Shown: piece after piece, positions 1,024 to 39,435 of the stretch
Layout: each line of letters begins with the position of its first letter
How positions within the stretch are numbered: the first letter of the stretch is position 1
IMG/VR virus record: IMGVR_UViG_3300045993_001028
Reading direction: 5' to 3' (one strand)
DNA: 64,000 nt
From: a virus
Program-made: the position numbers and the translations under genes
The notes under the pieces: model-generated
What the model saw: only the letters and a program-made list of their open reading frames with translations
Told to the model about the DNA's origin: nothing
Databases searched by the model: none

Positions 1024-1182
1024 TCAAGCACGTCGCGAGCGAAGCAGCAGCCAGCCGGCAAGCAGCGCGAGCGCCGCCCACTGCAGCTTCGACGGGCCGA
1101 GCGTCTGGTCGAGCGCGGCGTCGCCGACGTACATGAGCGAGGTGACACCCCCGCCCGCCGGCTGCGTGTACCGGACCTGCAT
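1024..1182 (-). CDS. 52-aa membrane protein with YVGD motif and C-terminal TM + RSRR
   Basis: Own translation MQVRYTQPAGGGVTSLMYVGDAALDQTLGPSKLQWAALALLAGWLLLRSRRA; fills the gap between neighbours; below ORF-track cutoff. Confidence 0.7.
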   Translation of the reverse strand: MQVRYTQPAGGGVTSLMYVGDAALDQTLGPSKLQWAALALLAGWLLLRSRRA

Positions 1183-1185
1183 CGA

Positions 1186-1557
1186 TCAGAGGAACCCGAT
1201 CTCGGCCTCGGCCTGGAACACGAGCGAGGTCAGGGCGCTCGCGAGGCCGGTGAGGAAGTCCGTGCTGTCGAGCCGGAGCTGCCCGTACCAGGGGAACGAG
1301 GAGTTCGCGGCGACGCTCTGCGCGGTGCCGATGACCTCGGTACCGGCCGCCGAACCGCCGGTGGTACCGACGTACAACGAAAACGTCACCGCGCCGGCGG
1401 TCTTGTTCACGATGTTGATGTGCCTGACGATCAAATACGGCTGCGTCGCGGTGAAGCCGGTCGGGCCCGCCACCGAGGTGATCAGCGGGTTGATGATGTT
1501 CGTCGCCGCCGTGAGCATCGCGACGGGGCCAATGCGGATGATCTTGTTGCTCGCCAT
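1186..1557 (-). CDS. Small beta-rich virion structural protein
   Basis: 123 aa, alternating beta pattern (LIVRHINIVNKT..VTFSLY..LRLDSTDFL); GGAG SD upstream. Confidence 0.65.
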   Translation of the reverse strand: MASNKIIRIGPVAMLTAATNIINPLITSVAGPTGFTATQPYLIVRHINIVNKTAGAVTFSLYVGTTGGSAAGTEVIGTAQSVAANSSFPWYGQLRLDSTDFLTGLASALTSLVFQAEAEIGFL

Positions 1558-1581
1558 GACGTGTTCTCCTGGGTTCGCCCG

Positions 1582-1590
1582 ATGGTATCA
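1582..1590 (-). promoter_or_regulatory. Extended -10 promoter candidate TGaTACCAT
   Basis: TGn-TAnnnT in the intergenic gap upstream of 1557, followed by a GGAG SD. Confidence 0.45.
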
Positions 1591-1600
1591 GCTTTCCCGG

Positions 1601-2515
1601 TCACCAGCTTAGGATGATCACGATCCCGTTTCCGCCCTGCCCGCCGCGCCCGGCCGTCGTCCCGCACCCGCCGCCCCCGCCCCCGGCCCCGTAGGCCCCC
1701 GGACCGCCCGCCCCGCCGATGCTGGCGTTGCTAGCCGCGCCGCCGCAGCCGCCGAACATCATGAACGGCTGCCAGATCGCCAGCCCGCCGCAGCCGTCAA
1801 ACGAGCCCGCCGCAGCCGCGGCCGGGCGCTGTTCGCTCAGGTAGGTGTTCGCGGTCGCGTTGAAGCCGCCGCCGGCGACGTCGGCGGCGATCACGCCCGC
1901 GCCGCCCGCGCCGCCGGTCATGCGGGCGCCGGTCACGGGGAGCGTGATCGACACGCCCGCCGCCCCGCCGCCGCCGCCAGCCGCGCCGGCCTGGCCGCCG
2001 ATCCCATCAAAGAGGCCCAGGGGCGAAAAGGCGCACGTCGACGCCGCGACGGCCGCTGTGACAGTGCCGGCGGTGCCGGCCGCCCCGGACGACCCTGCGC
2101 CGCCCCCAGGGGCCCCGTTCGCGAGGGCCAGCAGGTTGTCGATGGTGGTGTCACTGTCGATGCTGACGTAACTCGGAATCCCCGAAAGGGCTGCGCTGCC
2201 GCCGGGGATCCCTCCGAAGCCCCCCACGCCGACCTGGACGTAGAGCACGTCGGGCAGGAAGATCGTCGGATAGGTTACCCTGGTCAGCCCGGCCGAGGCG
2301 CCGCCGCCGCCGCCGCCGCCGGTCGCCGCCGCGGCGCGCGTGAAGCCCGCGCCGCCACCCCCGCCGCCCCCGAGCACGATCGCCGACATCATGCTCACGC
2401 CGCGCGGCTTGCGCCACGTCTGCCACTGCAGGTTCGTGACCGACGCCGGCGCGGTGAACACCTGCACGTCGCCGCGGAGGAACTTGTTGGGTACGCCGAA
2501 GAAGTCGATCGTCAT
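1601..2515 (-). CDS. Glycine-rich domain protein (paralog 1)
   Basis: 304 aa; [19 protein letters not shown]...GGQGGNGIVIILSW, typical phage Gly-rich (polyglycine) domain. Confidence 0.85.
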   Translation of the reverse strand: MTIDFFGVPNKFLRGDVQVFTAPASVTNLQWQTWRKPRGVSMMSAIVLGGGGGGGAGFTRAAAATGGGGGGGASAGLTRVTYPTIFLPDVLYVQVGVGGFGGIPGGSAALSGIPSYVSIDSDTTIDNLLALANGAPGGGAGSSGAAGTAGTVTAAVAASTCAFSPLGLFDGIGGQAGAAGGGGGAAGVSITLPVTGARMTGGAGGAGVIAADVAGGGFNATANTYLSEQRPAAAAAGSFDGCGGLAIWQPFMMFGGCGGAASNASIGGAGGPGAYGAGGGGGGCGTTAGRGGQGGNGIVIILSW

Positions 2516-2519
2516 GAGG

Positions 2520-3434
<915 letters not shown>

Positions 3435-3438
3435 GAGG

Positions 3439-4356
<918 letters not shown>

Positions 4357-4359
4357 GCG

Positions 4360-4794
4360 TCAGTACTTGCCGGCGATCGGCGTGCAGACCCACCCCGCCG
4401 CCACCGCGGTGCCGAGGCCGACGTAGATGCGGAACCCGGCGGGGATCGCGAACCCGAGCGGGTAGTCGATCTCGACGGTCGCCGCCGTCGCGATGGCGGT
4501 CGTCGCCGGGAGGCTGATCTCCCCGTAGAAAGTGTTGTTCGCCGCGGTGGTGTTGATCGACCCGTTGTTCAGGTAGATGCGCATCACCGACGCGACGTTG
4601 GTGCCGCCGGCCTTTAATCGGAGACGCTCGATGAACGACCCGTTGGTCGCGTCCGCGGTGAAGACGAGCGAGTTGTTCGCGCTGATGCCGGTGTAGTCGG
4701 CGGCGGCCAGCAGGATGAGCTGGTTCATGCCCGTCGTCCCGTTGTTCGAGACGTCGCCGATCTTCGAGTAGATGGGTGCGGTGTTGCCTGCCAT
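4360..4794 (-). CDS. Beta-rich virion/fibre-associated protein
   Basis: 144 aa MAGNTAPIYSKIG...EISLPATT...LGFAIPAGFRIYVGLG; type usually seen beside phage Gly-rich genes. Confidence 0.7.
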   Translation of the reverse strand: MAGNTAPIYSKIGDVSNNGTTGMNQLILLAAADYTGISANNSLVFTADATNGSFIERLRLKAGGTNVASVMRIYLNNGSINTTAANNTFYGEISLPATTAIATAATVEIDYPLGFAIPAGFRIYVGLGTAVAAGWVCTPIAGKY

Positions 4795-4801
4795 GGTGCC
4801 C

Positions 4802-5127
4802 TCAGGGAAGCGCGAAACCCTTGGTCAGCGCAAGGATCTCGCCGATCGAACCCGGCCCGGTGGGCCCGGTGGGCCCGGCAGGCCCGTCGGCGCCGGTGGC
4901 GCCGGTCGGGCCCGTCGCGCCCGTCGCGCCGCCGCCACTGCCCAGCAGCGTCCACGCGGTCGGGCCGGTGCCGCTCTTGACGTAGACGGCTCCGACGCCG
5001 GTGTACGACGTCGGCGACGACGGGACGTTCGTCTTCTGGTAGAGCATCCCCTTGGGCGCCTGGATCGACGTGACCGTCGGGTCGTCGTCGCCTTGGAGGG
5101 CCCAGTTCCAGTTGCTGTGCCAGTAGC

Positions 5128-5131
<4 letters not shown>
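4802..5131 (-). CDS. Short collagen-containing fibre protein (109 aa)
   Basis: True start ATG5131 (ATGA overlap): [19 protein letters not shown]...[10 protein letters not shown]. Confidence 0.8.
5076..5119. repeat. 44-bp exact direct repeat, copy 1 (copy 2 at 6806-6849)
   Basis: gtcgggtcgtcgtcgccttggagggcccagttccagttgctgtg at both sites; encodes [15 protein letters not shown]. Confidence 0.9.
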
Positions 5132-6861
<1,730 letters not shown>

Positions 6862-6865
6862 GGCA

Positions 6866-11107
<4,242 letters not shown>

Positions 11108-11116
11108 GCCGCCATA

Positions 11117-12484
11117 CTACCCGATCGGCCCGTAGCTGGGGCTGATCGCGATGACGGTCCCGGGCGTTCCCGGGAACCCGGTCGCGCCGACGTCCGCGCC
11201 GCGCCCGCCGCCGCCTCCTCCGACGTCGATCACCGGCAGCATCGGGTCATCGGTGATGACGATGACGACGCCTCCCTGGCCGCCGCCGCCGCCGCCGCCC
11301 GCGACGGTCGCCGCGCCGCCGCCGCCGCCCGCGGCGCGGATCGACCGGTCGGCCGCCTCGATGTGCCGAGCGCAGATCACGAGCACGCCGCCGCCGCCGC
11401 CGCCCGCGCCCGGCACGCCGAGCCCGTCGGGTGACGCCGCGCCGCAGCCGCCGCCGGCGCCGCCCGAGATGACGCCGCCGAGCATCGACTCGACGGTGTA
11501 GCAGTCGACGCCGCCGAGGTCGCCGGCGCCGCCGCCGGCGTAGCCGTCGCCGACGCCCGCGGCGCTGTCGCCACCCTGGCCGCCGGCCGCGACCGCCCGC
11601 GACGGGAAGTGGCCCGCCGGCGAGCCGACCGCCAGGAAGCCGCCCGCGCCGCCCGCGAAGTGGTTGCCGCCCGCGGCGCCGGTGCCCGGCGTCTCGAGGT
11701 GCGCGTCGCCGCCGTCGTTGCAGATGACGCCGCCGGGCTCGACGACCAGATCCTCCGCGACGTGGATGCGGTAGCCGGCCGCCTTGATGACGTCGCCCGC
11801 CTTGACGGTCAGCCGCCGGTAGAAGACGTCGCGGTGCAGCGTGGCGCCGCCGCCGGAGGTCACGAGGTCGCCGTCGATGCCCGTGCCGTAGCTCGAGCGG
11901 TCGGCGGTGTCGTCAAGGCACGACAGGTGGACCTGCGGCAGGCCGGGGTTGATCGTCGGCACGCCCTGTCGCACGACGCGCGCGTACTTCGCGACGACGT
12001 TCCGGGTCGCGATGCCCGGCGCGTTGAAGCCGAAGCCGACCTGCGCCCAGACCTCGCCGTCGAGGCTGACCTCGATCTCGACGTTGCCGCGGAACTCGCC
12101 GCCGACGCACGCCGTCTTGGCGACGTCGAAGCGGTCGATCAGCACGGGCTCGCCGATGCCCGCCTCGGGCGTCACGGGGAGCTCGACGGCGATCACGCGC
12201 CCGGCCTGACCCGCAAGCCCGCACGCCGCCGCGCCGTTGCGCCAGCCGCTCACGGTGCAACGCATCCAGCGGAACGCGCCGTCGAACGTGGTCGTGCCCG
12301 GGGATGAGGTCGTCCACACCGTGGCCCAGTCGTCCGGGTCCGCCGGCTCGTTCGACACCTCGACGGTGATCGTCGCCTGGAACTTGCCGCTGACGACGAC
12401 GGTCTTGGTCGCGAGATCGGCGACGCTGACGGGCGCGCCGGCGCCGTTGCCGGTGGGGACGGGGAGGGTGCGGAAGATGTTCAT
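11117..12484 (-). CDS. Collagen-less paralog of the long fibre (N-terminal beta domains + Gly-rich domain)
   Basis: MNIFRTLPVPTGNGAG vs [17 protein letters not shown]; YGTGIDGDLVT motif shared. Confidence 0.85.
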   Translation of the reverse strand: MNIFRTLPVPTGNGAGAPVSVADLATKTVVVSGKFQATITVEVSNEPADPDDWATVWTTSSPGTTTFDGAFRWMRCTVSGWRNGAAACGLAGQAGRVIAVELPVTPEAGIGEPVLIDRFDVAKTACVGGEFRGNVEIEVSLDGEVWAQVGFGFNAPGIATRNVVAKYARVVRQGVPTINPGLPQVHLSCLDDTADRSSYGTGIDGDLVTSGGGATLHRDVFYRRLTVKAGDVIKAAGYRIHVAEDLVVEPGGVICNDGGDAHLETPGTGAAGGNHFAGGAGGFLAVGSPAGHFPSRAVAAGGQGGDSAAGVGDGYAGGGAGDLGGVDCYTVESMLGGVISGGAGGGCGAASPDGLGVPGAGGGGGGVLVICARHIEAADRSIRAAGGGGGAATVAGGGGGGGQGGVVIVITDDPMLPVIDVGGGGGGRGADVGATGFPGTPGTVIAISPSYGPIG

Positions 12485-13569
12485 GGCGTGGCTCCGAGGT
12501 AGAACGAGAGGTTCCGGTGCAGGCGAGGATCGTCCGGCCGGGCCGCGATGGCAAGCCTCGCTGCGGCGAGGCCTGCAGCGCGGACCGCGGCGTCCCTAGT
12601 CCGCTGGGCGAGGTAGAACGCGGAGATCGCGACGAGGTCGTGGGCCTTCCAGGCGTAGACCTCGTCGTCGATGAACAGGCCGCGCTTCGGCAGGGGGAGC
12701 GACGCGGCACGGCTGGCGAACAGGTAGCAGAGCGCGAGGTCGTCGACCTGGCGGTAGTGCTCCGCGATCTCGTAGAGCGGTTCCGCTCGGGTCGGGTCGA
12801 AGGCGTGCGCCTCGAGGTACGCCGCCATCACGGCGTGCCAGGGGTTCTCGAGCTTCGCCCGGCACCGGGCGACGCGCAGCTTGGCCTCGAACGTCTCCTG
12901 GTCCCAGCCGCCGGCCTCGACGCGGGCGGCGTAGTGGCCCTCGGCGCGCCCCCAGTTGTCCAGGCACTCGTAGGTCTGCGCCAGGTAGAACAGCGTGCGC
13001 GAGCGGTCGACACCCGCGTCCAGGTCTTCGTGGAGCAGCGCGAGGTCACGCTCCCAGCGGGCCCTGCTCGCCGCCGCGCTGCGTGCGCTGCGGGCCTGCG
13101 TGACGTAGACGCCGGGCAACATCGAGACGGCGTTCTCGCCGACGGGCCCGCAGACGTACTCGTGGACGCGCCCGCGGTAGCGCCACTTTGCGGCCGTCCG
13201 CAGCACGAGCGGGACATGCCACGACGTGTCGCCGCGCCGCTGCACGAGGTAGGCGTCGGACCTCGAGTCGATGCAGATCGGCCCCTCGGCGTGGACGCGG
13301 TCGTCGCTGTCGAGCATCAGCGAGAAGGTCGTCTGATCGCCGAGGAGGTCGAGCGCCCGGTTGCGCGCCGACGCGAAATCCTCGAACGGGCCCTCGTGGA
13401 GCTCGCCCGGCAGCTCGCCCAGCACGCCGCGGATGATCGCCTGCGTGCCGTCCGTCGATCCGGTGTCGAGGATGCACCACCGGTCGATGTGTGGGAGCGC
13501 GGAGCGCAGCGTCGCCTCGATCCCGTGCGCCTCGTTGCGCACGATCATCACCAGGCCCATGGTGCTCAT
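12481..13569 (-). CDS. GT2 glycosyltransferase with TPR-like C-terminus
   Basis: Start ATG13569: GLVMIVRNEA..ILDTGSTDGT..LDSDD..YRGRVHE..R.LFYLAQTY. Confidence 0.9.
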   Translation of the reverse strand: MSTMGLVMIVRNEAHGIEATLRSALPHIDRWCILDTGSTDGTQAIIRGVLGELPGELHEGPFEDFASARNRALDLLGDQTTFSLMLDSDDRVHAEGPICIDSRSDAYLVQRRGDTSWHVPLVLRTAAKWRYRGRVHEYVCGPVGENAVSMLPGVYVTQARSARSAAASRARWERDLALLHEDLDAGVDRSRTLFYLAQTYECLDNWGRAEGHYAARVEAGGWDQETFEAKLRVARCRAKLENPWHAVMAAYLEAHAFDPTRAEPLYEIAEHYRQVDDLALCYLFASRAASLPLPKRGLFIDDEVYAWKAHDLVAISAFYLAQRTRDAAVRAAGLAAARLAIAARPDDPRLHRNLSFYLGATP

Positions 13570-14387
13570 CGGGAGGTCCGGTACTTCCAGAAGGCGAACG
13601 CCGCGATGGCGGCGGCGGTCAGCAGGAGGAGGGTGGTCGCCGACGACTTGCCGAGCAGCACGCTGCGGACGGTGTCGAGGTCGGTCGCGGCGACGCCTTG
13701 GCTCATGTCCATCACGACGCTCATGTCGGTGCCGGGCCAGCCGGGCGCCGAGGTCGGGTAGCCGTACTTGGCGTCGGCGGGGTTGTAGTAGCGCCCGTCG
13801 CCGACGTACTGCCAGAGGCAGAACTCGCCCTGCCGCCACCCGGCCTTGCTCATGTCGAGGTGCGGGCTCCACATCGACGAGAACCCCATGCGATCGGTGA
13901 CGCCGAGGTCGCGGACAAGGGCGCCGGTGTAGAGGATCGGCGTGACGCCGAGCGCGGCGCGGATCTTCGCGCAGAAGTCAGACGAGACGTCGACGATCTG
14001 CTGCGCGCTCGACCAGGACGAGCCCTCGAGGTCCCACGCCGGCGGCATGTCGCCGGCGCTGTCCCAACCGCCGGCGCGGTCGAGCGCGGCGAGCAGGAAG
14101 TCGGCCTGCGCGGTGCCGTCGCCGGGGCGCCCGAAGTGGTAGCAGCCGCGGAACCACGAGTCCCCGTAGCGCCCGCCGCCGGCGTCGCGCAGGCGCGGCC
14201 AGTTGTTCGTGAACCACGCGGGCGCATACTTGACGCCCTCGGTCGCCTTCAGGATGCACCCGACCATGTTCGCCGAAGCGGCGAGGGTGTCGAAGCGCGG
14301 CGCGGCGCCGGTGTTGTCGAGCTCGTAGATGTCGGGGAGGAAGAAGGCGGGCTGCCCGACGTCGCCCAGGCCGCGCAGGTAGCTCAC
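13566..14387 (-). CDS. GH25-like muramidase with C-terminal membrane anchor
   Basis: KATEG, GCYHF, PPAWDLE, PILYTG, LWQY; N-term MSYLRGLGD; C-term LLLLTAAAIAAFAFWKYRTSR. Confidence 0.85.
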   Translation of the reverse strand: MSYLRGLGDVGQPAFFLPDIYELDNTGAAPRFDTLAASANMVGCILKATEGVKYAPAWFTNNWPRLRDAGGGRYGDSWFRGCYHFGRPGDGTAQADFLLAALDRAGGWDSAGDMPPAWDLEGSSWSSAQQIVDVSSDFCAKIRAALGVTPILYTGALVRDLGVTDRMGFSSMWSPHLDMSKAGWRQGEFCLWQYVGDGRYYNPADAKYGYPTSAPGWPGTDMSVVMDMSQGVAATDLDTVRSVLLGKSSATTLLLLTAAAIAAFAFWKYRTSR

Positions 14388-15202
14388 GGCTTGCTCGCCA
14401 GGAACCGCCGCATCCGCGCCATGTTCTCGTCGGAGAGCGGGTTGTTGTCGGGCGCGGGGTTGCGCCGAGCGCGGCGGCCCGGGTTCGGCTTCAGCTTGGC
14501 GACCTCGCGCTCGACCATGTCGTAGACGCGCTCCCGGTCGGGGTCACCCGGCTGGCAGAGCAGATCGTCGAGCACCGAGGTGGTGAGGGTGCCCGGCGAG
14601 TCCGGGTAGCGGTCGCGCTGGCTGCGCATCCGCGCAACCGACCAGGCGACCTCGCGCTCGGTGATCTCCGCGGGCTTGACGCCGCGCAGGGCGTCGTCGG
14701 GACGCCGGCGGGCGCGGTCGGGCGGGTTGCGGCGCGGCGCCGGGTTCGGGAGCGCGACGACGCTGCCGCCGTCCCAGGAGAACGACGTCCCGTCGAAGCT
14801 GACCTCGAAGTTCGGGATGCTGACATGGAACCGCGCGTGGTTGTCGAACCACGAAACGCCGGAGCCGAGCGCCATGCTGGCGAGCGCGGATCCGAAGTCG
14901 TCCATGTCGATGCCCTTGGCGCGGGCGCGGCGCCGCGAGCCCGCCGGGTGCGCGGTGTGCTCGTCCTCGGCCGCTGCCATCATCGCGAGCATGCTGATCT
15001 GGGTCCGGTTCGACTCCTCGATGAGCTCGACGAGCGCCCACGCCGCCTTGTAGGCCGCCGCCGGCGTCTTCGGCGCGATGTCGTCCCAGTCCTGGCCGCT
15101 CCTCGCTCGGGCGACGCCGGGCGTGTTCTCGGCGTACTCCATGTAGGCGTACAGCCAGAGCGTGCGAGCCATGCCGTCGATCCCGTTCCAGTTGCGCGCC
15201 AT
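14384..15202 (-). CDS. Hypothetical protein with multiple NP motifs in a basic C-terminal part
   Basis: 272 aa; PNPAPRRNPP, KPNPGRRARRNPAPDNNP. Confidence 0.75.
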   Translation of the reverse strand: MARNWNGIDGMARTLWLYAYMEYAENTPGVARARSGQDWDDIAPKTPAAAYKAAWALVELIEESNRTQISMLAMMAAAEDEHTAHPAGSRRRARAKGIDMDDFGSALASMALGSGVSWFDNHARFHVSIPNFEVSFDGTSFSWDGGSVVALPNPAPRRNPPDRARRRPDDALRGVKPAEITEREVAWSVARMRSQRDRYPDSPGTLTTSVLDDLLCQPGDPDRERVYDMVEREVAKLKPNPGRRARRNPAPDNNPLSDENMARMRRFLASKP

Positions 15203-15203
15203 G

Positions 15204-25098: not shown

Positions 25099-25108
25099 CG
25101 GGATCCTT

Positions 25109-25537
25109 TCACTTCTTGTGGACGAGGAAGTAGTACGCGAGCCCGGCCGCGATGACCGTGCCGAAGCCGCCGGGGATCGACGGCAGGTCAGGGAGGAAGC
25201 CGAGGTCGAGGTTCGCGGACACCGCGAGCGACCGCTTCTTCGCCGCGGCGACGGCCGCCGAGGCGATCGTGTGCCAGTCAAGCTGGTTCCAGGCCGAACC
25301 GAGCAGCCGCACGAGGGCGCGAGCGGTCGGGACGTCGACCTGGCCGGTGATGGCGACGTTGGTGGCGCCCGCGTCGATGAGGGCCTGTTGGAGGTGGCGC
25401 GTCAGCATGATGACCGGCGACATGGCGGGGTCGGTCTGGGCCGGCGAGACGAACATGATCTTGACGACCAGGCCGGCGACGGCGTCGCCCATGCCGAGGC
25501 GCAGGAGGATCTGGCGGGCGTTGTTCTCGGTGGACAT
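25109..25537 (-). CDS. Virion membrane protein, possible peptidoglycan-binding-like domain
   Basis: RLGMGD..LQQAL..ITGQVDVPTARAL..VIAAGLAYYFLVHKK. Confidence 0.75.
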   Translation of the reverse strand: MSTENNARQILLRLGMGDAVAGLVVKIMFVSPAQTDPAMSPVIMLTRHLQQALIDAGATNVAITGQVDVPTARALVRLLGSAWNQLDWHTIASAAVAAAKKRSLAVSANLDLGFLPDLPSIPGGFGTVIAAGLAYYFLVHKK

Positions 25538-25541
25538 GGGG

Positions 25542-26999
25542 TCACTTTCGGAGCAGGAGGAAGACGGCGACGCCGGCGCCGCCGAGCAGGAGGAGGGGGA
25601 TCGCGAGGCTGCTCTGTGCCGGCGGCGGCGGCCCCGGCGGCGGCTGGTCGCCCTCGCAGATGCCGCTCGCGATGGCGGTGCCGGCGGCAGCGACCTGGAG
25701 CCCGGCCTTCGGGTCCCCGGCGTAGGCGCCGGCCGCGGTGCCGACGGCGAGCAGCGCGGCCTTGCCGGCCGAGCTCGAGACGAGCTCGCACGTCTTGTCG
25801 CCGACCCACTTCGCGGCGTCCTCGACGAAGTTGACGACCGTCGCGACGACGTCGAGGATGTGCGACCAGAGCGAGTCGTTGATCTTGGCGAACCCGACGG
25901 TGAGATAGGGCGCGTTGTCCGGCTTGCCCCAGGGCTTGTTCAGGTCGGGGGCGCCCAGCATGAAGTAGATCCCCCACTTCTCCTTGGTGATCGGGTGGGT
26001 GAACTTGACGAGCGGCTTCGCGTCGTCCTTCTCGCCCTGCAGGCCGATGTAGTCCTGGTTGATCATCGCCGGCAGGCCGGGCAGGAAGTCGGCGAGCGCG
26101 CCGAGGCGCGTGCCGGGACCCGACGCGCGCATCGAGCTCGTGAAGCGGCCGGTGTCCTTCGCGAGGACGTCGATGATCCCCTGCTGCCACTCGGACGGGA
26201 GGGGCATGTGATAGGTGATGCGGCCCGCGAGGCCCGCACCGAACTTGACGGACACGAACCCGACCGTCTTCGTTCCCGAGACGGCGCCGAACGTCGAGAG
26301 CGGCACCGTGAACGGGCCGATCGCCAGCATGTTCTGGCCGATGCTGCCGGCGGCGTCGGCCTTGCCGAGCTTGCCGCCCGCCGCGCTACCATCGGACGTG
26401 TTGGTCACGGTGGTACCGCCGGCGGCGCCAGTGGTCGTCGTGGTGCCGACGAGGCCCGGCTGCGGCGTCTGCCCTGGGCGCAGCCGCTCCCAGTGCGCCG
26501 GCATGGCCGTCGTCGCGGCGACGTACGTCCACCCGGGCCGGACTTCATACTTGGTCGTGGTCGCCGTCATCGTGCCGAACGACGGCGTCCCCGCGAGCGC
26601 CATGCACGGAATGCAGCCGAGCTGCGACCGCTTGGCGACGCCGCGGCCCTTGCCGAGCGCGACGATCTCCCGCCCGAGCCCCTGGCTCGCGGCGAGCGCG
26701 ATGCCGCGCTGCACGGCGACCTTGGCGGGCACGCCAGCCTTCGCCTCGGCCTCGGCGTGAGCCTCGGCGGCGGCGTGCAGGCGCGGGTCGATCTTGTCGA
26801 GCGCGGCGCGGAGCATCTTGGTGCGCACCGCGTCAGGCATGCCCTCGACGGTGGACATGAGCCCCTGCGCGAGCTGCGCACCGTAGGACGTGACCGGGGT
26901 CGCGCCCGACGCCGCGGCCTCGGCCCCGGCGAGGCCGGAGAGCGCCCGCGAGGCGTGGCCGCGGGCGTACCGGCGGCGTGGGGAGCTGGAGATGTACAT
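25542..26999 (-). CDS. Large virion membrane protein (ALSG motif, C-terminal TM)
   Basis: 485 aa; RALSGLAG; LAIPLLLLGGAGVAVFLLLRK. Confidence 0.8.
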   Translation of the reverse strand: MYISSSPRRRYARGHASRALSGLAGAEAAASGATPVTSYGAQLAQGLMSTVEGMPDAVRTKMLRAALDKIDPRLHAAAEAHAEAEAKAGVPAKVAVQRGIALAASQGLGREIVALGKGRGVAKRSQLGCIPCMALAGTPSFGTMTATTTKYEVRPGWTYVAATTAMPAHWERLRPGQTPQPGLVGTTTTTGAAGGTTVTNTSDGSAAGGKLGKADAAGSIGQNMLAIGPFTVPLSTFGAVSGTKTVGFVSVKFGAGLAGRITYHMPLPSEWQQGIIDVLAKDTGRFTSSMRASGPGTRLGALADFLPGLPAMINQDYIGLQGEKDDAKPLVKFTHPITKEKWGIYFMLGAPDLNKPWGKPDNAPYLTVGFAKINDSLWSHILDVVATVVNFVEDAAKWVGDKTCELVSSSAGKAALLAVGTAAGAYAGDPKAGLQVAAAGTAIASGICEGDQPPPGPPPPAQSSLAIPLLLLGGAGVAVFLLLRK

Positions 27000-27000
27000 G

Positions 27001-27369
27001 TCAGCGACCCTTCCGCCCGCCGAGCAGCAGGAACACCGCGACCGGGATCGCGAGGACGGCGGCGATCCCGATGGGCGTCATGTTGTACTCGCCGAGCGAC
27101 GGCGCCGAGCGGTTGAGCCAGTGAGGAACGCGCGGCCCATCGTAGGTCCCGCGCCGCGCCATCTTCGTGGTGCGGGCGCCCTGCCCGTAGGGCTCGCTCT
27201 TGACGTAGCCGGGCGTCGCGTAGCCGGTGTTGGCCGCGATGTTCGGGTCGTCGAAGGTGCCCCGCGGCGTCATCGCCGAGACGTAGGCGTGCCGCTGGAG
27301 CCCCTCGTCGGCGACGTTGGACGGGAGGGCGTAGCCGGGCTGCCACGGTGGCGGGAGGACGTTATTCAT
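27001..27369 (-). CDS. Small virion membrane protein
   Basis: PSLGEY then IGIAAVLAIPVAVFLLLGGRKGR. Confidence 0.8.
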   Translation of the reverse strand: MNNVLPPPWQPGYALPSNVADEGLQRHAYVSAMTPRGTFDDPNIAANTGYATPGYVKSEPYGQGARTTKMARRGTYDGPRVPHWLNRSAPSLGEYNMTPIGIAAVLAIPVAVFLLLGGRKGR

Positions 27370-27378
27370 GGGGCTCCT

Positions 27379-27915
27379 TTATGCGACCGGCCACACGGCG
27401 GCGGCCTTGATGCGCTTCATCATCTCGGGGGTCTTCTCGGCCGCGACCGGATCGAGCACGATCCACTGCCCCGTCCGCGGCTCCTGCGCCTGGGCGAACA
27501 CATGGCTGTACTGCTGCTGCCCCTGGTAGACCTGCAGCGCGAACGCGACCGTCACGAACCGGACGGTGCCGCCGACCGCGAGGATCAGCGCACCGAGCAG
27601 GCTCGACATGTCGTCGCAGTCGAGCGACGGGCGCCCGCCGCCCAGCAGCTCGTCGCAGACGAGGTAGGGCGCCTTCACGAGCTCGACCGTCCGCGGGTCC
27701 CGCATGTAGCGGCACCGCGCGAGGACGAGGTTGTAGAGCGCCAGGTACTCGCTCGTGTAGTCCTTGGACGCGAGGGCCTGACAGGCGGCCTCGGCGACCT
27801 TGCGGACGCCGAAGTGCCCCTGGGACTCGAGCACGGCACGACGCATCACGGCGACCGTCTGAGGTGCGCCGCGGTAGTCGAGTTTCAGGACTCGTGAGTC
27901 GTCAGCGTTGATCAC
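27379..27915 (-). CDS. Transglutaminase-fold cysteine protease (candidate virion maturation protease)
   Basis: LDCDDMS (Cys), YSHVF (His), WIVLDP (Asp) in transglutaminase-like order and spacing. Confidence 0.8.
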   Translation of the reverse strand: MINADDSRVLKLDYRGAPQTVAVMRRAVLESQGHFGVRKVAEAACQALASKDYTSEYLALYNLVLARCRYMRDPRTVELVKAPYLVCDELLGGGRPSLDCDDMSSLLGALILAVGGTVRFVTVAFALQVYQGQQQYSHVFAQAQEPRTGQWIVLDPVAAEKTPEMMKRIKAAAVWPVA

Positions 27916-27964
27916 CCAAGGGACGTTCTCCGGAGAAGGAGAGGGATGCCCCGAGGCTACACCG

Positions 27965-29644
27965 CTACGACTCGCCGATCAACGCCTTGCCGAGCTTCCG
28001 CGCCCAGTTGCGCCCACCCTGCGACGACAGCGGGCTCTCGGCGTCGACCTTCGCGACGTCCGTCAGGAACTTCTCGATCCCGAGCGACTTGATCGCGGTC
28101 ATCACCTCGGCCGGGATCATCGAGCGGACGCTCGTCGCGACCGCCTCCGGGTCGTGGTTGTTGCGGTAGGCGTTCTCGAGGTAGTCGACCGACACCTTGA
28201 TGGTCGTCGCCGAAATCTCGGGGAGCACCGCGCCGGTGCCGTCCGCGGTCGGCGGCGGCGCCGATCGCTTGCGCACGAGCTCGACCTTGCCGCCGGGCAG
28301 CGTGCGGTAGAGGTTCCCGTCGGGCCCCTGGACCATCTTGGGGCGGTGCTGCGCGACCTGCTGCGCCTGGGCCTGCGCGACCTGCTGCGGGGACGGCCCC
28401 TGCTCGCCGCCGGCGAACTTCTGGGCGATCGTCTGCATCACGGGCAGGTTGCCCGCGACCTCGAGTGCCTTCTCCCAGCCGGACTTCTCGTTCTTGTCAT
28501 CGCCGGTGATCTCGCCGAGCGCGTCCTTGATGGCGGCGAACTCCGAGGCCTGCTCGAGGATGGTCTTGTCCTTCTTGAGCCGCAGCGCGACGACCTCGGC
28601 CTTCGTCTCGCCGAGCTGCGCCTCGAGCCGGCGGACCTCGGCCTCGAGCAGCGAGCGCGTCGTCGACGCGGCCGTCTCGACGCTGGCGACCCGCAGGTCG
28701 TAGCTCTGCCGCAGCATGCCGATCTCCCGCTCGTGCATGAGCGTTGCCGCCTGGCGGTCGCGCTCGAACCGGTCGTGGAGCCGCTCCTCGCTCTGGTGCG
28801 CGTGCTCCTTCGCCATGCGGAGCTCGGACTCGTACTGCGTCCGGAGCGCGGTGATGCGCGCCGAGTCGCCGTCGAGCAGCTTGTCGAGCATCTTGTCGCG
28901 GAACTCGTCGCGCTCGGGCGGCTTCTGCGCCGCCTGCTGCGTCATGGCGAGCTGCGCCTGAAGGTCGCGGTTGGTGCGGTGCATCTCGGCCATCTGCTGT
29001 TGCATCGGGCCGGTGACCTGGCGCAGGAGCTCGCCGTCGATCCCGCCGCCGTGGGACGGCTGCTGCTGCTGCTGCGCCTTCTCGAGCTGCCGCTCGAGGG
29101 ACCCGAGGGCGCGCTCGACGATGCCCGCGTTCGGCGAGTTCGGCGCCGCCGGCTGGTCGGCGCCGTCGCGGTAGACGTCGTCGAGGCGCGGGTCGCCAGC
29201 GATCTTGATCATCTTGCCGCCGGCGTACTGCCAGCCCGAGCCGCTCGCGCGGGGGCGCTGGACGACGAGATAGTAGTCGCCGCCGCCGTGCGTCTCGCGG
29301 ATGAACTCCTCGTCGACGGTGTGCTCGTAGTTGCCCACGACGCCGCCGACGTTCTTGCCCTTCCAGATCGTCGGCTTCTTGCGCTCGATCTTGACGCGGA
29401 TGGCCGCGCCCGGGTTGATCTCCTCGAGCCACTCCTTGAGGGCCTTGTCCTCGTTGAGCTTCATCTCCTTGATGACCGGCGACTCGACGAAGCGAGCGCG
29501 CTCGCGCGGCTCCGGCGCGGGCGCGGCTTCGGTCTGGCCGTCGGGCTGCGCCTCGGCGACCACTTCGGTGCCGTTGACGGCCGACATCGGGATCTCCTCC
29601 TGCTGCTGCTCGCGCAGGCGGCGGGCGCGGGGCTCACGCATCAT
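27965..29644 (-). CDS. Large coiled-coil protein
   Basis: 559 aa with a central heptad region (about aa 180-340); alternative start MSAVNG. Confidence 0.8.
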   Translation of the reverse strand: MMREPRARRLREQQQEEIPMSAVNGTEVVAEAQPDGQTEAAPAPEPRERARFVESPVIKEMKLNEDKALKEWLEEINPGAAIRVKIERKKPTIWKGKNVGGVVGNYEHTVDEEFIRETHGGGDYYLVVQRPRASGSGWQYAGGKMIKIAGDPRLDDVYRDGADQPAAPNSPNAGIVERALGSLERQLEKAQQQQQPSHGGGIDGELLRQVTGPMQQQMAEMHRTNRDLQAQLAMTQQAAQKPPERDEFRDKMLDKLLDGDSARITALRTQYESELRMAKEHAHQSEERLHDRFERDRQAATLMHEREIGMLRQSYDLRVASVETAASTTRSLLEAEVRRLEAQLGETKAEVVALRLKKDKTILEQASEFAAIKDALGEITGDDKNEKSGWEKALEVAGNLPVMQTIAQKFAGGEQGPSPQQVAQAQAQQVAQHRPKMVQGPDGNLYRTLPGGKVELVRKRSAPPPTADGTGAVLPEISATTIKVSVDYLENAYRNNHDPEAVATSVRSMIPAEVMTAIKSLGIEKFLTDVAKVDAESPLSSQGGRNWARKLGKALIGES

Positions 29645-30044
29645 CGTCCTCCTCGCCCTCGGCCTCGGCCTCGTCGGCGTCCTCCGGCGACAGCATCGTG
29701 GCCTGGGTCAAGACCTCGAGCGCCGCCTTGGCGAGCTGCTCGTGCTGGGCGATCTTCTTGAGCAGGAGCTCGTCGCCGCCGGCGCGGGCGCGGAGCTCGC
29801 TCGCGAGCTGCAGGCCGCTCTCGATGGCGGCGGCGAACACCGCGGCCGTCTCCTGCTGCAGGTAGTCCTCGCTCTGGTCGACGAGTTCGGCGACGGCGTC
29901 GTCGACCTCCTCGAAGTTCTCGACCAGCGACTCGAGGAACGGCCACAGCGTGTCCCTCAGGTGGCGCGGGAGCTGCGAGAGCTCCAGCTTGCTTGCCTCG
30001 GCAATGTTGGCTTTGAGGTCTGCCCTCAGGTCGTCCATGCTCAC
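29634..30044 (-). CDS. Acidic helical hypothetical protein
   Basis: GTGA-overlap start 30044 (MSMDDLRADL...EGEEDDDA). Confidence 0.7.
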   Translation of the reverse strand: MSMDDLRADLKANIAEASKLELSQLPRHLRDTLWPFLESLVENFEEVDDAVAELVDQSEDYLQQETAAVFAAAIESGLQLASELRARAGGDELLLKKIAQHEQLAKAALEVLTQATMLSPEDADEAEAEGEEDDDA

Positions 30045-30433
30045 TTGTCGTTCTCCTCGGAAAAGTTGTTGTCGGAGAGGCCGAGCGCCGCCTCGTAGGC
30101 GGCGGCCTCGGCGAGAAACTCGCGGCCCTCGGGGGACGCGAGGTAGCTCTGGCGGGCGGCGATCTGGTGGCGCCGGTCGCGCGGGTACCAGTGCGAGCAC
30201 TGGAGGATCGGCGTCTCGGCCAGCTCGACCTCGATCCCCGCGGACGGGTAGCAGGCCCGGGTGATTACCCTCGGGGTGACGCCGGTGGCGTCGGTCAGGG
30301 CCGCGCCGATCGCGTCCTGGGCGTCGAGGACCGACACCAGCCGGTGGTAGTGGCGACAGGGACCGGCCTCGCAGAGCGAGGGCGGATCGATCTGCGGCAG
30401 GCTCGAGCGCGGCGCGGGCGCGGGGCCCGCCAT
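30041..30433 (-). CDS. Cys/His-containing hypothetical protein (first gene of left operon)
   Basis: LCEAGPCRHYH..CYP..CSHW; start uncertain (ORF extends to 30631). Confidence 0.6.
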   Translation of the reverse strand: MAGPAPAPRSSLPQIDPPSLCEAGPCRHYHRLVSVLDAQDAIGAALTDATGVTPRVITRACYPSAGIEVELAETPILQCSHWYPRDRRHQIAARQSYLASPEGREFLAEAAAYEAALGLSDNNFSEENDK

Positions 30434-30698
30434 CGTGCCGTCGGGCGCGGTCGAGATCGCGCTCGGGGCCCAGTCAGCCAGGAATCGGGTGGTCAAGGTC
30501 GTTCTCTTCAAGGGTGCCTCCGGTTGAGCGAGCGCACAGTGAGCATCGCTCGAGGATTCCGCGAGGGTTCCGCCGGCCGCGGGTGCGCGGTCGCCGCGTT
30601 TTCGGCCGGCGCCACCTCGCCGAGGGCTCACGGGAGCCCCGGAAACCTCGTCGGCGCCCCCCTCCGCGACCTCCGAAACTCGCCAAATCCTCCTCTGT

Positions 30699-36499: not shown

Positions 36500-37369
36500 G
36501 TGCAAGCACGCACCAACAAAGCCGCGCTCGACGCTCCCCGCAAGAACGCCTTCATGCTCGACCCCGACAAGATCGTCATCGTCGGGCTCGACACCGCCGA
36601 CGACGACAAGCACGTCCTCTGGGACCCGCGCATCAAGCTCGAGCCCACCGAGGAGATGATCCGCTCGATTCGCGTCTACGGGATCATCGAGCCGATCACC
36701 GTCGCCAAGGACGGCGACAAGACGATCGTCGTCGACGGTCGCCAGCGGGTGAAGGCGGCCCGCGAGGCCGCGAAGCGCATGCGCGAGGCCGGCGAGGGCG
36801 AGCTGCTCGTCCCCGCCATCGTGCGCCGCGCCGACGACCTCGACCTGATGTTCATCTCGCGGGCCGCGAACTCCTGCCGCACCGTCGACAGCCCGCTGGT
36901 CCACGCGAAGAACGCCCAGCGCATGATCGACCACGGCTGCAGCGAGGCCCAGGTCGCCGCGTCGTTCGGCGTCACCGTGCGCGGCGTCCAGCAGTGGCTC
37001 AAGCTGCTCGACCTCGCGCCCGAGGTCAAGCGGGCGGTCGAGGCCGGCAAGCTGACGGCGAGCGCGGCCTCGAGCCTGTCGAAGCTGTCCCGCGACGACC
37101 AGCGGGAGAAGCTGGTCGCGATCGTCGAGAAGGCCCAGGTCACCGGCAAGAAGCCGACCGCCCGCGCCGTCAAGACCGCGGTCAAGGTCGCCAAGGGCGA
37201 GGACCCGGTGATGGCGCCCAAGGAGAAGGTCAAGCTCGCCACGGACATCCTCGAGACGTACGAGCGCAGCAAGTTCCCCGGGCACCCGGACTTCATCCTC
37301 GTGACCCTCGAGGCTCTGGCGAAGGCGATCCTCGGCCGCCTGCTCGCTCCGCTTCCCAGCGACAACTGA
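36500..37369 (+). CDS. ParB/Srx-like N-terminal domain + HTH protein
   Basis: MIRSIRVYGIIEPITV..VVDGRQRVKAA; EAQVAASFGVTVRGVQQWLKLL. Confidence 0.85.
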   Translation: MQARTNKAALDAPRKNAFMLDPDKIVIVGLDTADDDKHVLWDPRIKLEPTEEMIRSIRVYGIIEPITVAKDGDKTIVVDGRQRVKAAREAAKRMREAGEGELLVPAIVRRADDLDLMFISRAANSCRTVDSPLVHAKNAQRMIDHGCSEAQVAASFGVTVRGVQQWLKLLDLAPEVKRAVEAGKLTASAASSLSKLSRDDQREKLVAIVEKAQVTGKKPTARAVKTAVKVAKGEDPVMAPKEKVKLATDILETYERSKFPGHPDFILVTLEALAKAILGRLLAPLPSDN

Positions 37370-37396
37370 GCCCGCTCCCGTGGTAGCCTCGGGGGC

Positions 37397-38146
37397 GTGA
37401 CCGACTACGCCGCGCTCCTGAACCAGAAGAACAGCGCCGCCTCGATGCAGTCGGACGCCGCCGGGGTCCAGCGGCTGCTCGGGATGTACGGGGAGTGGAT
37501 CGACAAGTACCGCGGCGGCATGCCGGCGACCTGGCTCGCCATGATCATGCAGTGGGAGTCGAACGGGAAGCAGGACCTGCCCGGCGACGCGCAACTCGGC
37601 GAGTACGGGCTCTACCAGATCGCCAAGTACATCCCCGTGCTGTTCGGGTACCCGGAGAGCGCCCGCCTCGACCCCGAAACCAACGTCGCGCTCGCCGTCC
37701 TCGAGTACGGCTACGAGGCGTGCCGCTGGGCGCTCGAGTTCCCCGGCATGGTCGAGCTCGGGTCCGCCGACTCGTGGAAGCTGGCCCGCATGACGTTCGC
37801 GCTCGGGCACGCCGGATCCCGCGCTGCCGCGAAGGCGGCGGGCATCCACAGCCCCGGCGACGTCTACGGGGACATCGCCGAGTGGGCGCGGAGCACTGGC
37901 GGCGGCGGCAACACCAAGACCGCGTTCCGCATCCTGTCGATCGACACGCAGTGGCGGACCGCCGAACTCGCGAACGGCGGGTCGCTCTACCCGGGCAAGC
38001 CCGAGCTCATCCCGGCGCCGCCGTCGGGCCCCTACACCTTGCCGCCCGCCGTCGCCGAGATGTTCACCTCCGGCGGCTCCACCACCACGCTCCTTCTGGC
38101 CGTCCTTGGCGGCGTGGGCCTGTTCCTGTACCTTCGGAGGCGCTAA
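37397..38146 (+). CDS. Membrane-anchored lytic transglycosylase-like protein
   Basis: AMIMQWESNG, GLYQI, LDPETNV; C-term LLLAVLGGVGLFLYLRRR. Confidence 0.75.
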   Translation: MTDYAALLNQKNSAASMQSDAAGVQRLLGMYGEWIDKYRGGMPATWLAMIMQWESNGKQDLPGDAQLGEYGLYQIAKYIPVLFGYPESARLDPETNVALAVLEYGYEACRWALEFPGMVELGSADSWKLARMTFALGHAGSRAAAKAAGIHSPGDVYGDIAEWARSTGGGGNTKTAFRILSIDTQWRTAELANGGSLYPGKPELIPAPPSGPYTLPPAVAEMFTSGGSTTTLLLAVLGGVGLFLYLRRR

Positions 38147-38149
38147 CCC

Positions 38150-38599
38150 ATGACCGCGATGTCCTCGAAACTCGGCCCGCCGACCTCGACCAACCGGAAC
38201 CAGGCCACGGTCCTCGCCCCGGGCGCGACCGCCCTCACGGCCGAGACGACGTCGGACCTGTCGACGTTCCTCACGACGGCGGTCGCCAACGGGCAGCCCC
38301 AGGTTCTCTACAACGGCGACCGGCAGCAGGCGAACGTGACGCTGACGCTCGAGACGGCGGGCCCGGTGACCGTCAGCACCCGCGCTGCCCTGAAGACCGG
38401 GCACGTCCTCCAGACCGGCGTCCCGACCACGATCCCGGTCGCGAAGGGGAACCGGCTGTACGTCGCGGCGAGCGGGATCAACCGCATCAGCGTCGACGTC
38501 GTCCCCGTCCCGTGGCAGGAGCAGCAGGCCGGGCTGCTCGCCCAGGTCGTCGCCGGGCTCGGGGCCCTCCTCAACGTCCTCGCTCGAGGTGTCAAGTGA
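38150..38599 (+). CDS. Beta-rich structural-like protein
   Basis: SKLGP; alternating beta strands (VTLTLE..VTVS..RLYVAA..ISVDV). Confidence 0.65.
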   Translation: MTAMSSKLGPPTSTNRNQATVLAPGATALTAETTSDLSTFLTTAVANGQPQVLYNGDRQQANVTLTLETAGPVTVSTRAALKTGHVLQTGVPTTIPVAKGNRLYVAASGINRISVDVVPVPWQEQQAGLLAQVVAGLGALLNVLARGVK

Positions 38600-39435
38600 G
38601 CTACCCGCAGCCTAACGCCAACGCCTACGCCCTCGGTGGGTCCCAGTTCTTCCGGCTCAACACGCTGCTCTCGAGCCCCGGCGACATCTACGAGAGCGAG
38701 CAGAGCGGGCTCGCGCTCGCGATCGGCCCGAACAGCGACATCGCCAAGGTCGGCGTCGCGTACTTCGACGGCCAGACCCCGACGTACATGAACCGGATGG
38801 TGATCGATCCGAACCGGATGTTCCTCGGCCGGCTCGACGCGCGCAATGCCGCGTCCACCTACGCCCCGTCGGGCCGACCTGGGCGGATCCTGATGTGGTC
38901 GGAGGACGCCTACGACCCCAGCTACGTCCCGTCGGCAGCGGTCGGGTGGGGGGTCAGCGACACGGTCACGATCATCCCTCCGCAGCTCGACGTCATCGAG
39001 TTCTTCCAGCAGATCCCGTCCCCGTCGAGGCGCGCTGACCGAGAGTACAAGATCCAGCACGCCGGCGCCAACTTCACCGGCCAGACCTGGCTGGTGTTTC
39101 CGTGCTACGGACGCAAGTTCGGATCGATCTCCTGCACCTGCGGGGGCAACACCCCGACGTTCACGCTCCGCGTTGTCGGAGTTCGGTACAGCGCGCCGTA
39201 CGTCACGTCCGGCGGTGGCGTGACGACCCTCGGCAACCCCACGACAAGCGAGACGACGATCTACTCGGCATCCCTGGCGAGCGGCGCGAGCAAGACGGTC
39301 AAGGACTTCCTCGGCGGCGGAGTTGACACCAACGCGGGCATGTACGACTCGATCGCCGTCTGCGTTAAGTACGTCGCCGACTCCCATGATGGCGGCAACG
39401 TCCCGCTTCGCGTCTACTTCTCCGACGAGCCGTAA
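38596..39435 (+). CDS. Beta-rich structural-like protein (MSY..ALGG)
   Basis: GTG38596 (GTGA overlap), MSYPQPNANAYALGG. Confidence 0.7.
   Translation: MSYPQPNANAYALGGSQFFRLNTLLSSPGDIYESEQSGLALAIGPNSDIAKVGVAYFDGQTPTYMNRMVIDPNRMFLGRLDARNAASTYAPSGRPGRILMWSEDAYDPSYVPSAAVGWGVSDTVTIIPPQLDVIEFFQQIPSPSRRADREYKIQHAGANFTGQTWLVFPCYGRKFGSISCTCGGNTPTFTLRVVGVRYSAPYVTSGGGVTTLGNPTTSETTIYSASLASGASKTVKDFLGGGVDTNAGMYDSIAVCVKYVADSHDGGNVPLRVYFSDEP

Follow-up and report, generated by a model that had tools for sequence, protein, structure and literature searches.

A modular two-ended tag on unrelated membrane-anchored proteins in a clade of large uncultured phages

Introduction

Why should about a dozen otherwise unrelated proteins of one virus begin and end in the same way? 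This question is raised by a 64,000-nucleotide stretch of DNA (hereafter the window) from IMG/VR virus record IMGVR_UViG_3300045993_001028, which has a GC content of 70% and is part of a 75,636-bp metagenomic contig. A first-pass annotation, made from the letters alone, had noted that several genes of the window start with MSY, carry a small Gly motif shortly downstream and end in a single transmembrane (TM) helix followed by basic residues. These features had been read as a virus-specific sorting or cleavage code for membrane cargo, by analogy with the Gly-directed maturation cleavage of adenovirus, African swine fever virus (ASFV) and poxviruses.

The follow-up described here partly supports that reading. 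The tag is real and far beyond chance, its two ends constitute a modular code that is conserved at the protein level, and it is most likely an address label that directs about a dozen unrelated membrane proteins into the virus particle; it is this addressing part of the earlier reading that is supported. The source of the window is a genome of ~75.6 kb from a widespread uncultured clade of large phages (60-107 kb), which appear to be tailless and to possess a jelly-roll capsid and an internal membrane. No description of this clade or of the tag was found in the literature searched.

Statistical evidence for the tag

A codon-bias gene call on the window yielded 78 genes, of which those in the block 13566-30496 (minus strand) form a tight, operon-like array and mostly lack a known family. 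All eight MSY starts translate as reported, seven from minus-strand genes and one from a plus-strand gene, and in most of these proteins a hydrophobic-Gly-[D/A/G] motif falls inside the first 40 residues. Five of them (5131, 15947, 17170, 23599 and 25098) are ATG-AGC/TCN-TAC starts, while the other three of the eight (14387, 16564 and 38596) use GTG, read as M. Likewise, every Gly motif quoted earlier is present (RGLGD, KTLGD, RGVGA, NGMGD, PALSG, NSLGA, YALGG, SLGD, GMGD, ALSG, QLGD, ELGA/SLGA and YVGD), and the number of genes ending in one TM helix and a K/R tail, given as about 12, was counted as ~15.

Tyr is residue 3 in 11 of the 78 window proteins (background Tyr 2.6%; binomial p=5e-6). 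The C-terminal anchor is found in 13/23 genes of the structural block (13566-27369) as opposed to 5/55 elsewhere in the window (p=2e-5), and the full tag in 7/23 versus 2/55 (p=0.002). A motif of the form [LMVFI]G[DA] lies within residues 4-40 of 7/11 window proteins with Tyr at position 3 (Y3 proteins), compared with 8/67 others (p=5e-4) and with a mean of 1.6 and a maximum of 5 among shuffled controls.

The same holds true beyond the window. When five syntenic relatives with their depositors' gene calls are added, 53/218 proteins carry Tyr3 against the same background of 2.6%, while Tyr counts at positions 2 and 4-14 of these 218 proteins are only 2-13. The motif [LMVFI]GD occurs in residues 4-40 of 25/69 Y3 proteins versus 16/193 others and in 0/52 internal segments of equal size taken from the same proteins; 500 shuffles gave a mean of 3.2 and a maximum of 9. 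In a larger set of 673 proteins, called uniformly and without regard to the motif in the window together with 24 related loci from metagenomes (GC 57-72%), Tyr3 is found in 139 proteins. Of these, 111 also possess a C-terminal anchor (odds ratio 14.6, p=3e-37), although pooled p-values of this kind overstate significance because orthologues are statistically dependent, a point to be held against the interpretation developed below. Tyr3 exceeds expectation in every one of the 25 loci, and does so about ten-fold in most genomes. The idea of a virus-specific code with two ends, enriched in the structural block and kept throughout the clade on non-homologous carriers, thus holds up.

Anatomy of the leader and the anchor

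The leader follows the consensus M-[S/A/T]-Y-x-[R/K], continues with a basic or Pro-rich linker and ends in the junction [G/A]-[L/M/V]-G-[D/A]. From M1 to the junction Gly it measures a median of 18 residues (range 5-43). Residue 5 is R/K in 66/139 Y3 proteins. At the junction, L/M/V precedes the Gly at position -1, and position +1 holds D/A in 89/101 cases and G in 7/101. Position -2 played no part in the selection of sites, yet G/A stands there in 31/48 and, in a larger set, 57/101. The leader has a net charge of +2.1, the following 15 residues one of -1.35. Residue 2 is usually small (S/A/T/P/G). As methionine aminopeptidase removes the initiator Met where residue 2 is small, Tyr would become the second residue of the processed chain in most cases; MY variants would keep their Met.

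The anchor is just as stereotyped. A Ser/Thr-rich run is followed by a Leu-rich start, an LLL-(A/G)-G-G core, a Tyr near the end and a K/R tail, with Gly at -11 in 59% of cases, Gly/Ala at -10, Tyr at -4 in 32% and then ~3.3 K/R. Second codons of the tagged genes are diverse (AGC, GCG, ACC, GCC, ACG, GCA, TCG and others), and the tag is kept from 48% to 72% GC, the lower figure coming from a distant relative whose tail-anchored proteins start MYILGG...VMGD and MYVLGNLGA. Judged from these sequences, selection acts on the peptide rather than on the mRNA.

Searches for known signals and families returned little. Basic or polar in character, the leaders show neither an h-region (hydrophobic core) nor a twin-arginine box or lipobox, and an NCBIfam scan of 10 tagged proteins matched no sorting-signal model, the sole hit being LPXTG_anchor at E=0.32 and 11.7 bits against a cut-off of 15.9. 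Among the tagged proteins, Pfam, PHROGs and NCBIfam searches found GH25 alone.

Modularity of the two ends

That the middle parts of the carriers are unrelated, as had been claimed, is borne out by two comparisons. Tagged proteins within one genome show no BLAST links except for one TM match, and after both ends had been trimmed from 17 tagged orthogroups, 0/136 pairs reached an hhalign probability >=90. Payloads comprise small unknown domains, GH25, M23 peptidase and LysM. At the position of the tagged GH25 gene, relatives L002-L004 carry an M23 peptidase with the same leader and anchor instead, the leaders reading MSYARLRPRALSG... and MTYTRPTRGVLGA....

The window itself contains a natural comparison, as the tagged GH25 protein (13566-14387, minus strand) has an untagged, unanchored paralogue of 248 aa (42917-43663, minus strand; BLASTP 34% identity, E=1e-33). 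The two copies become homologous at residue 17 (tagged) and residue 7 (untagged), and homology stops before the extra C-terminal 45 residues of the tagged copy. Leader and anchor are therefore add-ons. The untagged soluble protein is probably the endolysin and the tagged one probably a virion-associated entry enzyme.

A second case concerns a gene found unsplit in five relatives (472-621 aa) but, according to alignments, split in the window at 25542-27369 (minus strand). The split was caused by an insertion of ~45 codons, which supplied a TM helix, GGRKGR and a stop to the first half and a start and basic leader to the second. The 122-aa upstream half (27001-27369) has consequently gained its own TM helix and GGRKGR tail, and the 485-aa downstream half (25542-26999) its own leader, MYISSSPRRRYARGHASRALSG, while keeping the C-terminal anchor.

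Finally, the orthologues of the 121-aa protein at 16805-17170 illustrate which parts of the leader are fixed. Across 21 loci, 20 start with MxY and 1 with MY, and both the MxY box and the sequence after the junction are fixed; the leaders in between measure 5-27 aa, with h-G-[D/A/G/T] (h, hydrophobic) at their end, and are followed by the conserved mature sequence. Some orthologues seemed leaderless, with called starts of MGD..., and were rejected as such, given that all of them have in-frame upstream MSY starts.

Carriers in the window

All carriers described here lie on the minus strand unless stated otherwise; a slash marks the junction. The GH25 muramidase (273 aa, 13566-14387; PF01183, E=1.4e-12), whose place among the carriers had been recognised before, has a GTG start, the leader MSYLRGLG/D and a C-terminal TM helix followed by KYRTSR. 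Tail-anchored tagged proteins are those of 99 aa (15648-15947; MSYAKTLG/D ... LRKK), 205 aa (15947-16564; GTG start, MSYARDTNAHTRGVG/A ... LLRRS, with orthologues of the form MSF/MAY/MSY...TRG[VP]GA), 121 aa (16805-17170; MSYTNRNGMG/D ... GNRSR), 247 aa (22856-23599; MSYHPTRRYRRPAPRPALSG/F ... YKRIKETT, with orthologues of the form MTY...RRR...[AG][LM]GD) and 193 aa (24517-25098; MSYLRSNSLG/A ... ATKK). The 139-aa anchored protein at 17875-18294 has a Cys-rich variant of the leader, MPACCHACASGRRCASLG/D, that lacks the Tyr, while its orthologues start MSY or MTY. Cys clusters (CCHAC or CCSGC...C) between start and junction are also seen in relatives L001 (13171-13566) and L005 (12695-12862) and could be a metal-binding or acylation site.

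Other proteins carry parts of the tag. An anchored 93-aa protein (23596-23877) starts MMYSVWNN and is an ambiguous member, its Tyr3 being conserved and its N-terminus lying within a conserved domain. An anchored 142-aa protein ending in HKK (25109-25537) has no Tyr box, and its LGMGD falls inside the conserved LxxLGxGxFNAT block of its orthologues. The Gly motifs assigned to these two genes are present, but as parts of conserved domain sequence they may not be junctions. A 211-aa protein (23874-24509; MSDY...YQLGD) is a weak member, whose C-terminus is very basic and which in the window genome lacks a TM helix. The MSY gene starting at 38596 does have the reported start (GTG; MSYPQPNANAYALG/G), yet it lies on the plus strand (38596-39435) outside the structural block, and its 279-aa product is a leader-only protein without a C-terminal TM helix. 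Conversely, a 52-aa protein (1024-1182) is anchor-only, ending in LLLRSRRA, and has an internal MYVGD. The gene at 4802-5131, initially counted as a carrier, was rejected, since its N-terminus opens a conserved fibre domain that recurs in the paralogue at 5128-6861, and the protein has no anchor.

A candidate leader peptidase

Next to the tagged genes lies the gene of a 178-aa protein (27379-27915, minus strand), predicted to be a Cys-His-Asp enzyme of the transglutaminase fold and our candidate for the leader peptidase. In alignments, the triad C100 (LDCDD), H138 (YSHVF) and D155 (LDPV) is invariant in eight clade members and in gp34 of the cultured, membrane-containing phage SSIP-1. The match to PF01841 (E=0.001, 19.8 bits) falls below the gathering cut-off of 23; two orthologues have precomputed weak matches to the same transglutaminase family, and language-model features place the window protein at 0.98 to viral Transglut_core clusters. 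A search of its hidden Markov model (HMM) against PDB sequences gave no match. The enzyme gene is present in 13/13 genomes examined, and its one tie to the Gly junction is this co-occurrence. A hydrophobic P2 and a small P1 residue, as found at the junction, suit a papain-like specificity.

Homology of SSIP-1 gp34 (L027, 21296-22210) to the window enzyme is evident from tblastn (5.7e-10) and HMM (6e-13) searches. The SSIP-1 protein is annotated as structural and has its own C-terminal anchor, with a junction-like RGMGE in the linker between catalytic domain and TM helix that may be a self-release site.

Capsid context and virion type

The jelly-roll assignment derives from a 210-aa capsid-like protein (18299-18931, minus strand), whose gene, like that of the enzyme, co-occurs with the tags. 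Its AF2 model, built from a diverse alignment (pLDDT 93.5), consists of a long N-terminal helix and an eight-stranded jelly roll. In Foldseek, the top match is the HHIV-2 capsid protein (probability 0.99, E=2e-3). Z scores are 7.6 for SPV1, 7.0 for HHIV-2 and HCIV-1 and 6.5 for P23-77 VP17, with SH1 also among the best matches, all of them moderate (Z<8), within the range that the tool calls common, and hence suggestive rather than decisive. A 191-aa beta-rich protein (19065-19640, minus strand), the product of the clade's most conserved gene, is the second capsid candidate; its AF2 model is poor (pLDDT 44) and was left out of the fold search. HMM searches of both candidates against PDB sequences returned nothing meaningful. 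No terminase (TerL, PF03354) was matched in five complete relatives, and no tailed-phage structural family was matched by PHROG or Pfam in the module. Equally, no Walker A motif was seen in window proteins, and no match to PF01580 or the P23-77 ATPase in the five complete relatives, though a divergent ATPase is possible. The moderate Z scores, the poorly folded second candidate and the missing packaging ATPase all weigh against the picture of a membrane-containing jelly-roll virion and make it an apparent rather than an established one. Neither a terminase nor an FtsK-type ATPase was thus detected in a clade that packages 75-86 kb of DNA.

Several neighbouring features deserve mention. A 400-aa untagged protein (19772-20974, minus strand) has a protamine-like, R/K-rich region of ~200 aa, a hydrophobic region, repeated QELG units and a C-terminus, LYAG[IV]FRGGF, that is conserved in the clade; a role as a membrane-linked core protein that condenses DNA is possible. 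In relative L007 (11581-12422), the 191-aa gene is interrupted, as a 57-aa N-terminal open reading frame (ORF) precedes one of 219 aa whose first ~40 aa are unrelated; an insertion, a mobile element or a frameshift could be the cause. Relative L001 has an HNH endonuclease gene (12659-13138, minus strand) on the opposite strand directly after the capsid-like genes. In the window, positions 1-12484 (minus strand) hold a fibre and glycosylation module with a 1413-aa collagen-repeat protein (PF01391), three ~304-aa paralogues with Gly-rich tails and a GT2 glycosyltransferase (12481-13569, minus strand). On the plus strand, 47663-55393 encodes a 2576-aa protein with no Pfam match and no sequence similarity detected to the giant structural protein gp43 of SSIP-1 (2319 aa).

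Extent and host of the clade

The 191-aa protein has 678 homologue clusters, with identity of at least 71% among the 120 best listed, and a 559-aa scaffold-like protein (27965-29644) has 47 homologues on contigs of up to 107 kb. No match was found for the 559-aa protein in IMG/VR and INPHARED by a related-locus search or by tblastn, nor for the 191-aa protein in a tblastn search against phages. Five IMG/VR relatives of 75.6-86.4 kb are rated 94-100% complete; four of the five have terminal repeats and are rated 100%. Near-complete clade contigs of 68-89 kb (L008-L015) are binned in metagenome-assembled genomes of seven unrelated phyla (bins labelled Actinomycetota, Peribacteria, Gemmatimonadota, Thermomicrobiales, Myxococcales, Kiloniellales and 'Deltaproteobacteria'). 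These contigs are therefore best taken as free virus contigs that were probably mis-binned. Host calls from such bins are unreliable and were rejected, as was a single Kofleriaceae annotation considered as a host clue.

Comparison with known systems

Of the analogies drawn at the outset, the one with poxviruses is apt. The vaccinia membrane protein A17 starts MSYLRYYN, and its tail with Tyr3/6/7 docks onto the jelly-roll scaffold protein D13 (PMC13672803). The extreme N-terminus sits in the base cavity of the D13 capsomer lattice, the first 16 residues being most critical (PMC13672803, PMC8971458). Processing of the A17 N-terminus depends on I7, a viral Cys protease that cuts core proteins at AG/X, and correlates with release of the D13 scaffold (PMC4213562). 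As in A17, viral membrane proteins of the clade bear a Tyr at their extreme N-terminus (139/673 with Tyr3, 111 of them anchored), and leader length (here a median of 18 aa) and a junction of a small residue and Gly are comparable. Two window proteins start MSYLR, and the first five residues of the 24517-25098 product are identical to those of A17 (PMC13672803). The differences are just as clear. A17 is one protein, whereas here about a dozen unrelated single-pass tail-anchored proteins carry the tag, and the host is bacterial. Unlike I7 with its AG/X site, the junction is [G/A]-[L/M/V]-G-[D/A], and the candidate enzyme, the one conserved Cys-His-Asp enzyme found, has a transglutaminase fold rather than the clan-CE, Ulp1/adenain-like fold. 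The similarity to A17 may be convergent.

Adenovirus and ASFV, both jelly-roll viruses, have several of their virion precursors cut at Gly-directed sites, (M/L/I)XGG/X and GG/X respectively. This second analogy does not fit, given that the GG-X consensus differs from h-G-[D/A]. GG is rare here (G at +1 in 7/101), a hydrophobic residue directly precedes the Gly, the enzyme fold differs and the capsid-like, core-like and 559-aa proteins have no conserved internal sites. Conceptually closer is the capsid targeting sequence of phage T4, a short N-terminal peptide on unrelated internal proteins that delivers them into the particle and is clipped by the gp21 prohead protease. The idea of a short address peptide shared by unrelated cargo is the same; T4, however, is a tailed phage of the HK97 fold with soluble cargo, cut after Glu by another protease family. 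The tag therefore belongs to neither the A17/D13/I7 nor the T4 system, from which it differs in motif, enzyme fold and carriers. It is equally unlike sortase, exosortase and archaeosortase signals (LPXTG, PEP-CTERM, MYXO-CTERM and PGF-CTERM), as no curated model matched and no N-terminal Sec signal peptide is present.

Among prokaryotic viruses, SSIP-1 shares with the clade not only the enzyme homologue gp34 but also many tail-anchored proteins in the same neighbourhood, and the 17-aa leader of its ORF36 ends QGMGD/IWDLL, resembling the junctions described here. An M-x-Y box was seen in none of 26 SSIP-1 gene products examined, ORF36 included. SSIP-1 further differs in its smaller genome (43.8 kb, 57% GC) and in the anchor carried by gp34 itself, and its capsid-like proteins show no detectable sequence similarity to those of the clade. 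Viruses with vertical single jelly rolls, namely Sphaerolipoviridae (HCIV-1, HHIV-2 and SH1) and Matshushitaviridae (P23-77), together with SPV1 provide the best structural matches of the 210-aa protein and resemble the clade in having two adjacent capsid-type genes of ~200 aa. Their genomes are 16-31 kb, in contrast to 60-107 kb here, and their packaging ATPase was not found in the clade. We know of no maturation protease described for these viruses, and inspection of P23-77 revealed no shared leader or tag. In HCIV-1 and HHIV-2, proteins with a C-terminal TM helix (the candidate VP10 and VP13) lie under the capsomers and position them (PMC6414509).

Proposed mechanism and rival explanations

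The A17/D13/I7 precedent, together with the tail-anchored proteins under HCIV-1 and HHIV-2 capsomers, leads us to propose docking and Gly-directed processing. Taken as a whole, the best explanation, to which we give slightly better than even chances, is that of an assembly or docking leader on virion-membrane cargo whose Gly junction is probably cut by the transglutaminase-fold enzyme. Each carrier would be a cargo cassette consisting of an N-terminal leader, any payload and a stereotyped tail anchor. The anchor would insert the cargo into the membrane of the future viral vesicle, with the payload facing the capsid and the basic tail pointing towards the DNA. After loss of Met, the free x-Tyr box would dock onto a partner in assembly, for which the base of a jelly-roll capsomer or a scaffold is the most plausible candidate, and the sharing of this box would co-recruit about a dozen unrelated proteins. 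The Gly junction would act as a hinge that is probably cut by the virion-type Cys-His-Asp enzyme, releasing the leader during maturation. Docking partner, topology, location in the virion and cleavage are what we infer from these parallels. A bolder version sees in the tag the bacterial-virus counterpart of A17-D13-I7, in which x-Tyr peptides would plug cargo under capsomers and a Cys protease of a different fold would clip them at Gly; we advance this tentatively, as less likely than not.

Apart from the dependence among orthologues, a number of points weigh against docking followed by cleavage. Judged by sequence conservation, the invariant element is the extreme N-terminal x-Tyr and not the Gly junction. 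No junction is recognisable in about 27% of Y3 proteins, and in the L021 orthologue of 16805-17170, MGYATVADLAAQVNRF, M-G-Y is fused directly to the mature domain with neither linker nor junction. Cleavage therefore cannot be universal, and the Tyr box, kept in L021 without a junction, emerges as the core element. The capsid-like, core-like and scaffold-like (559-aa) proteins lack a conserved internal junction motif, and the enzyme might rather serve during entry, as a cell-wall endopeptidase. A luminal basic tail would, moreover, conflict with the positive-inside rule if the membrane stems from the host inner membrane.

Much of this would be expected if the leader were never cleaved and served as a permanent structural arm that binds capsomers, the membrane surface or DNA via its Tyr and basic residues, the Gly-Asp junction being a flexible hinge before an acidic amphipathic helix. 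The greater invariance of the x-Tyr box, the junction-less L021 protein and the lack of internal sites in other structural proteins all speak for such an arm, the basic leader and the acidic segment could form an intra- or intermolecular zipper, and no maturation protease is, to our knowledge, known from cultured prokaryotic jelly-roll viruses. On the other hand, positional preferences at four successive junction sites would be less usual for a hinge than for a site read by an enzyme, length and sequence of the leader are free between fixed ends as in a propeptide, and a Cys-His-Asp enzyme is conserved beside the tagged genes. We consider an uncleaved arm rather unlikely, though it remains a substantial rival. 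A further rival takes the two ends as topogenic signals, recognised by host YidC/Sec or a tail-anchor pathway, that insert and orient the proteins in the cell membrane without any role in assembly. Charged flanks are classical determinants of topology under the positive-inside rule, and both ends co-occur; yet the leader has no h-region, twin-arginine box or lipobox and matches no sorting model, a charge signal leaves the strictly conserved Tyr3 unexplained, and leader-only soluble proteins exist (38596-39435 in the window, L001 17182 and L005 15974), all of which makes this improbable.

Could the two ends simply be relics of one small ancestral membrane protein that was duplicated until its ends alone remained recognisable, with no shared function needed? 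The tagged genes are indeed tandem and similarly small, and one weak profile link exists (OG25-OG26, probability 63). Set against this are the 0/136 profile pairs at probability 90, the occurrence of the same ends on unrelated enzymes (GH25, M23 and LysM-containing proteins), the gene split that made missing ends de novo and the retention of the ends despite deep divergence (marker proteins at 31% identity, 48-72% GC). The latter points to purifying selection and thereby implies function, so that we regard descent without function as very improbable. Least credible of all is that the pattern arose by chance, from composition, or because translation initiation or gene overlap shapes the first codons. 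The many ATGA/GTGA overlaps do favour second codons starting with A, such as AGC (Ser), but the roughly ten-fold Tyr3 excess in most genomes, the diversity of second codons and the retention of the tag at 48% GC speak against it, and since shuffling and internal windows do not reproduce the motif, the controls refute it.

Implications

The choice of membrane proteins and the coupling of membrane and capsid are largely unknown for viruses of bacteria and archaea that have an internal membrane. If the docking reading is true, a transferable label with two ends makes cargo choice directly testable, and in this abundant clade, which counts 678 capsid-protein clusters and has complete genomes of 75-86 kb, sequence would suffice to read off the virion-membrane proteome. 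Such tags could also serve for loading foreign proteins into phage-derived vesicles. The parallel with A17/D13/I7 bears on whether membrane-capsid coupling is common across Varidnaviria. If the proposal is correct, docking through a Tyr tail with Gly-directed release would be a principle of jelly-roll viruses with a membrane that is either ancient or has been invented repeatedly, and the maturation protease and the cargo-addressing code of this clade would each be the first from a prokaryotic member of the jelly-roll lineage.

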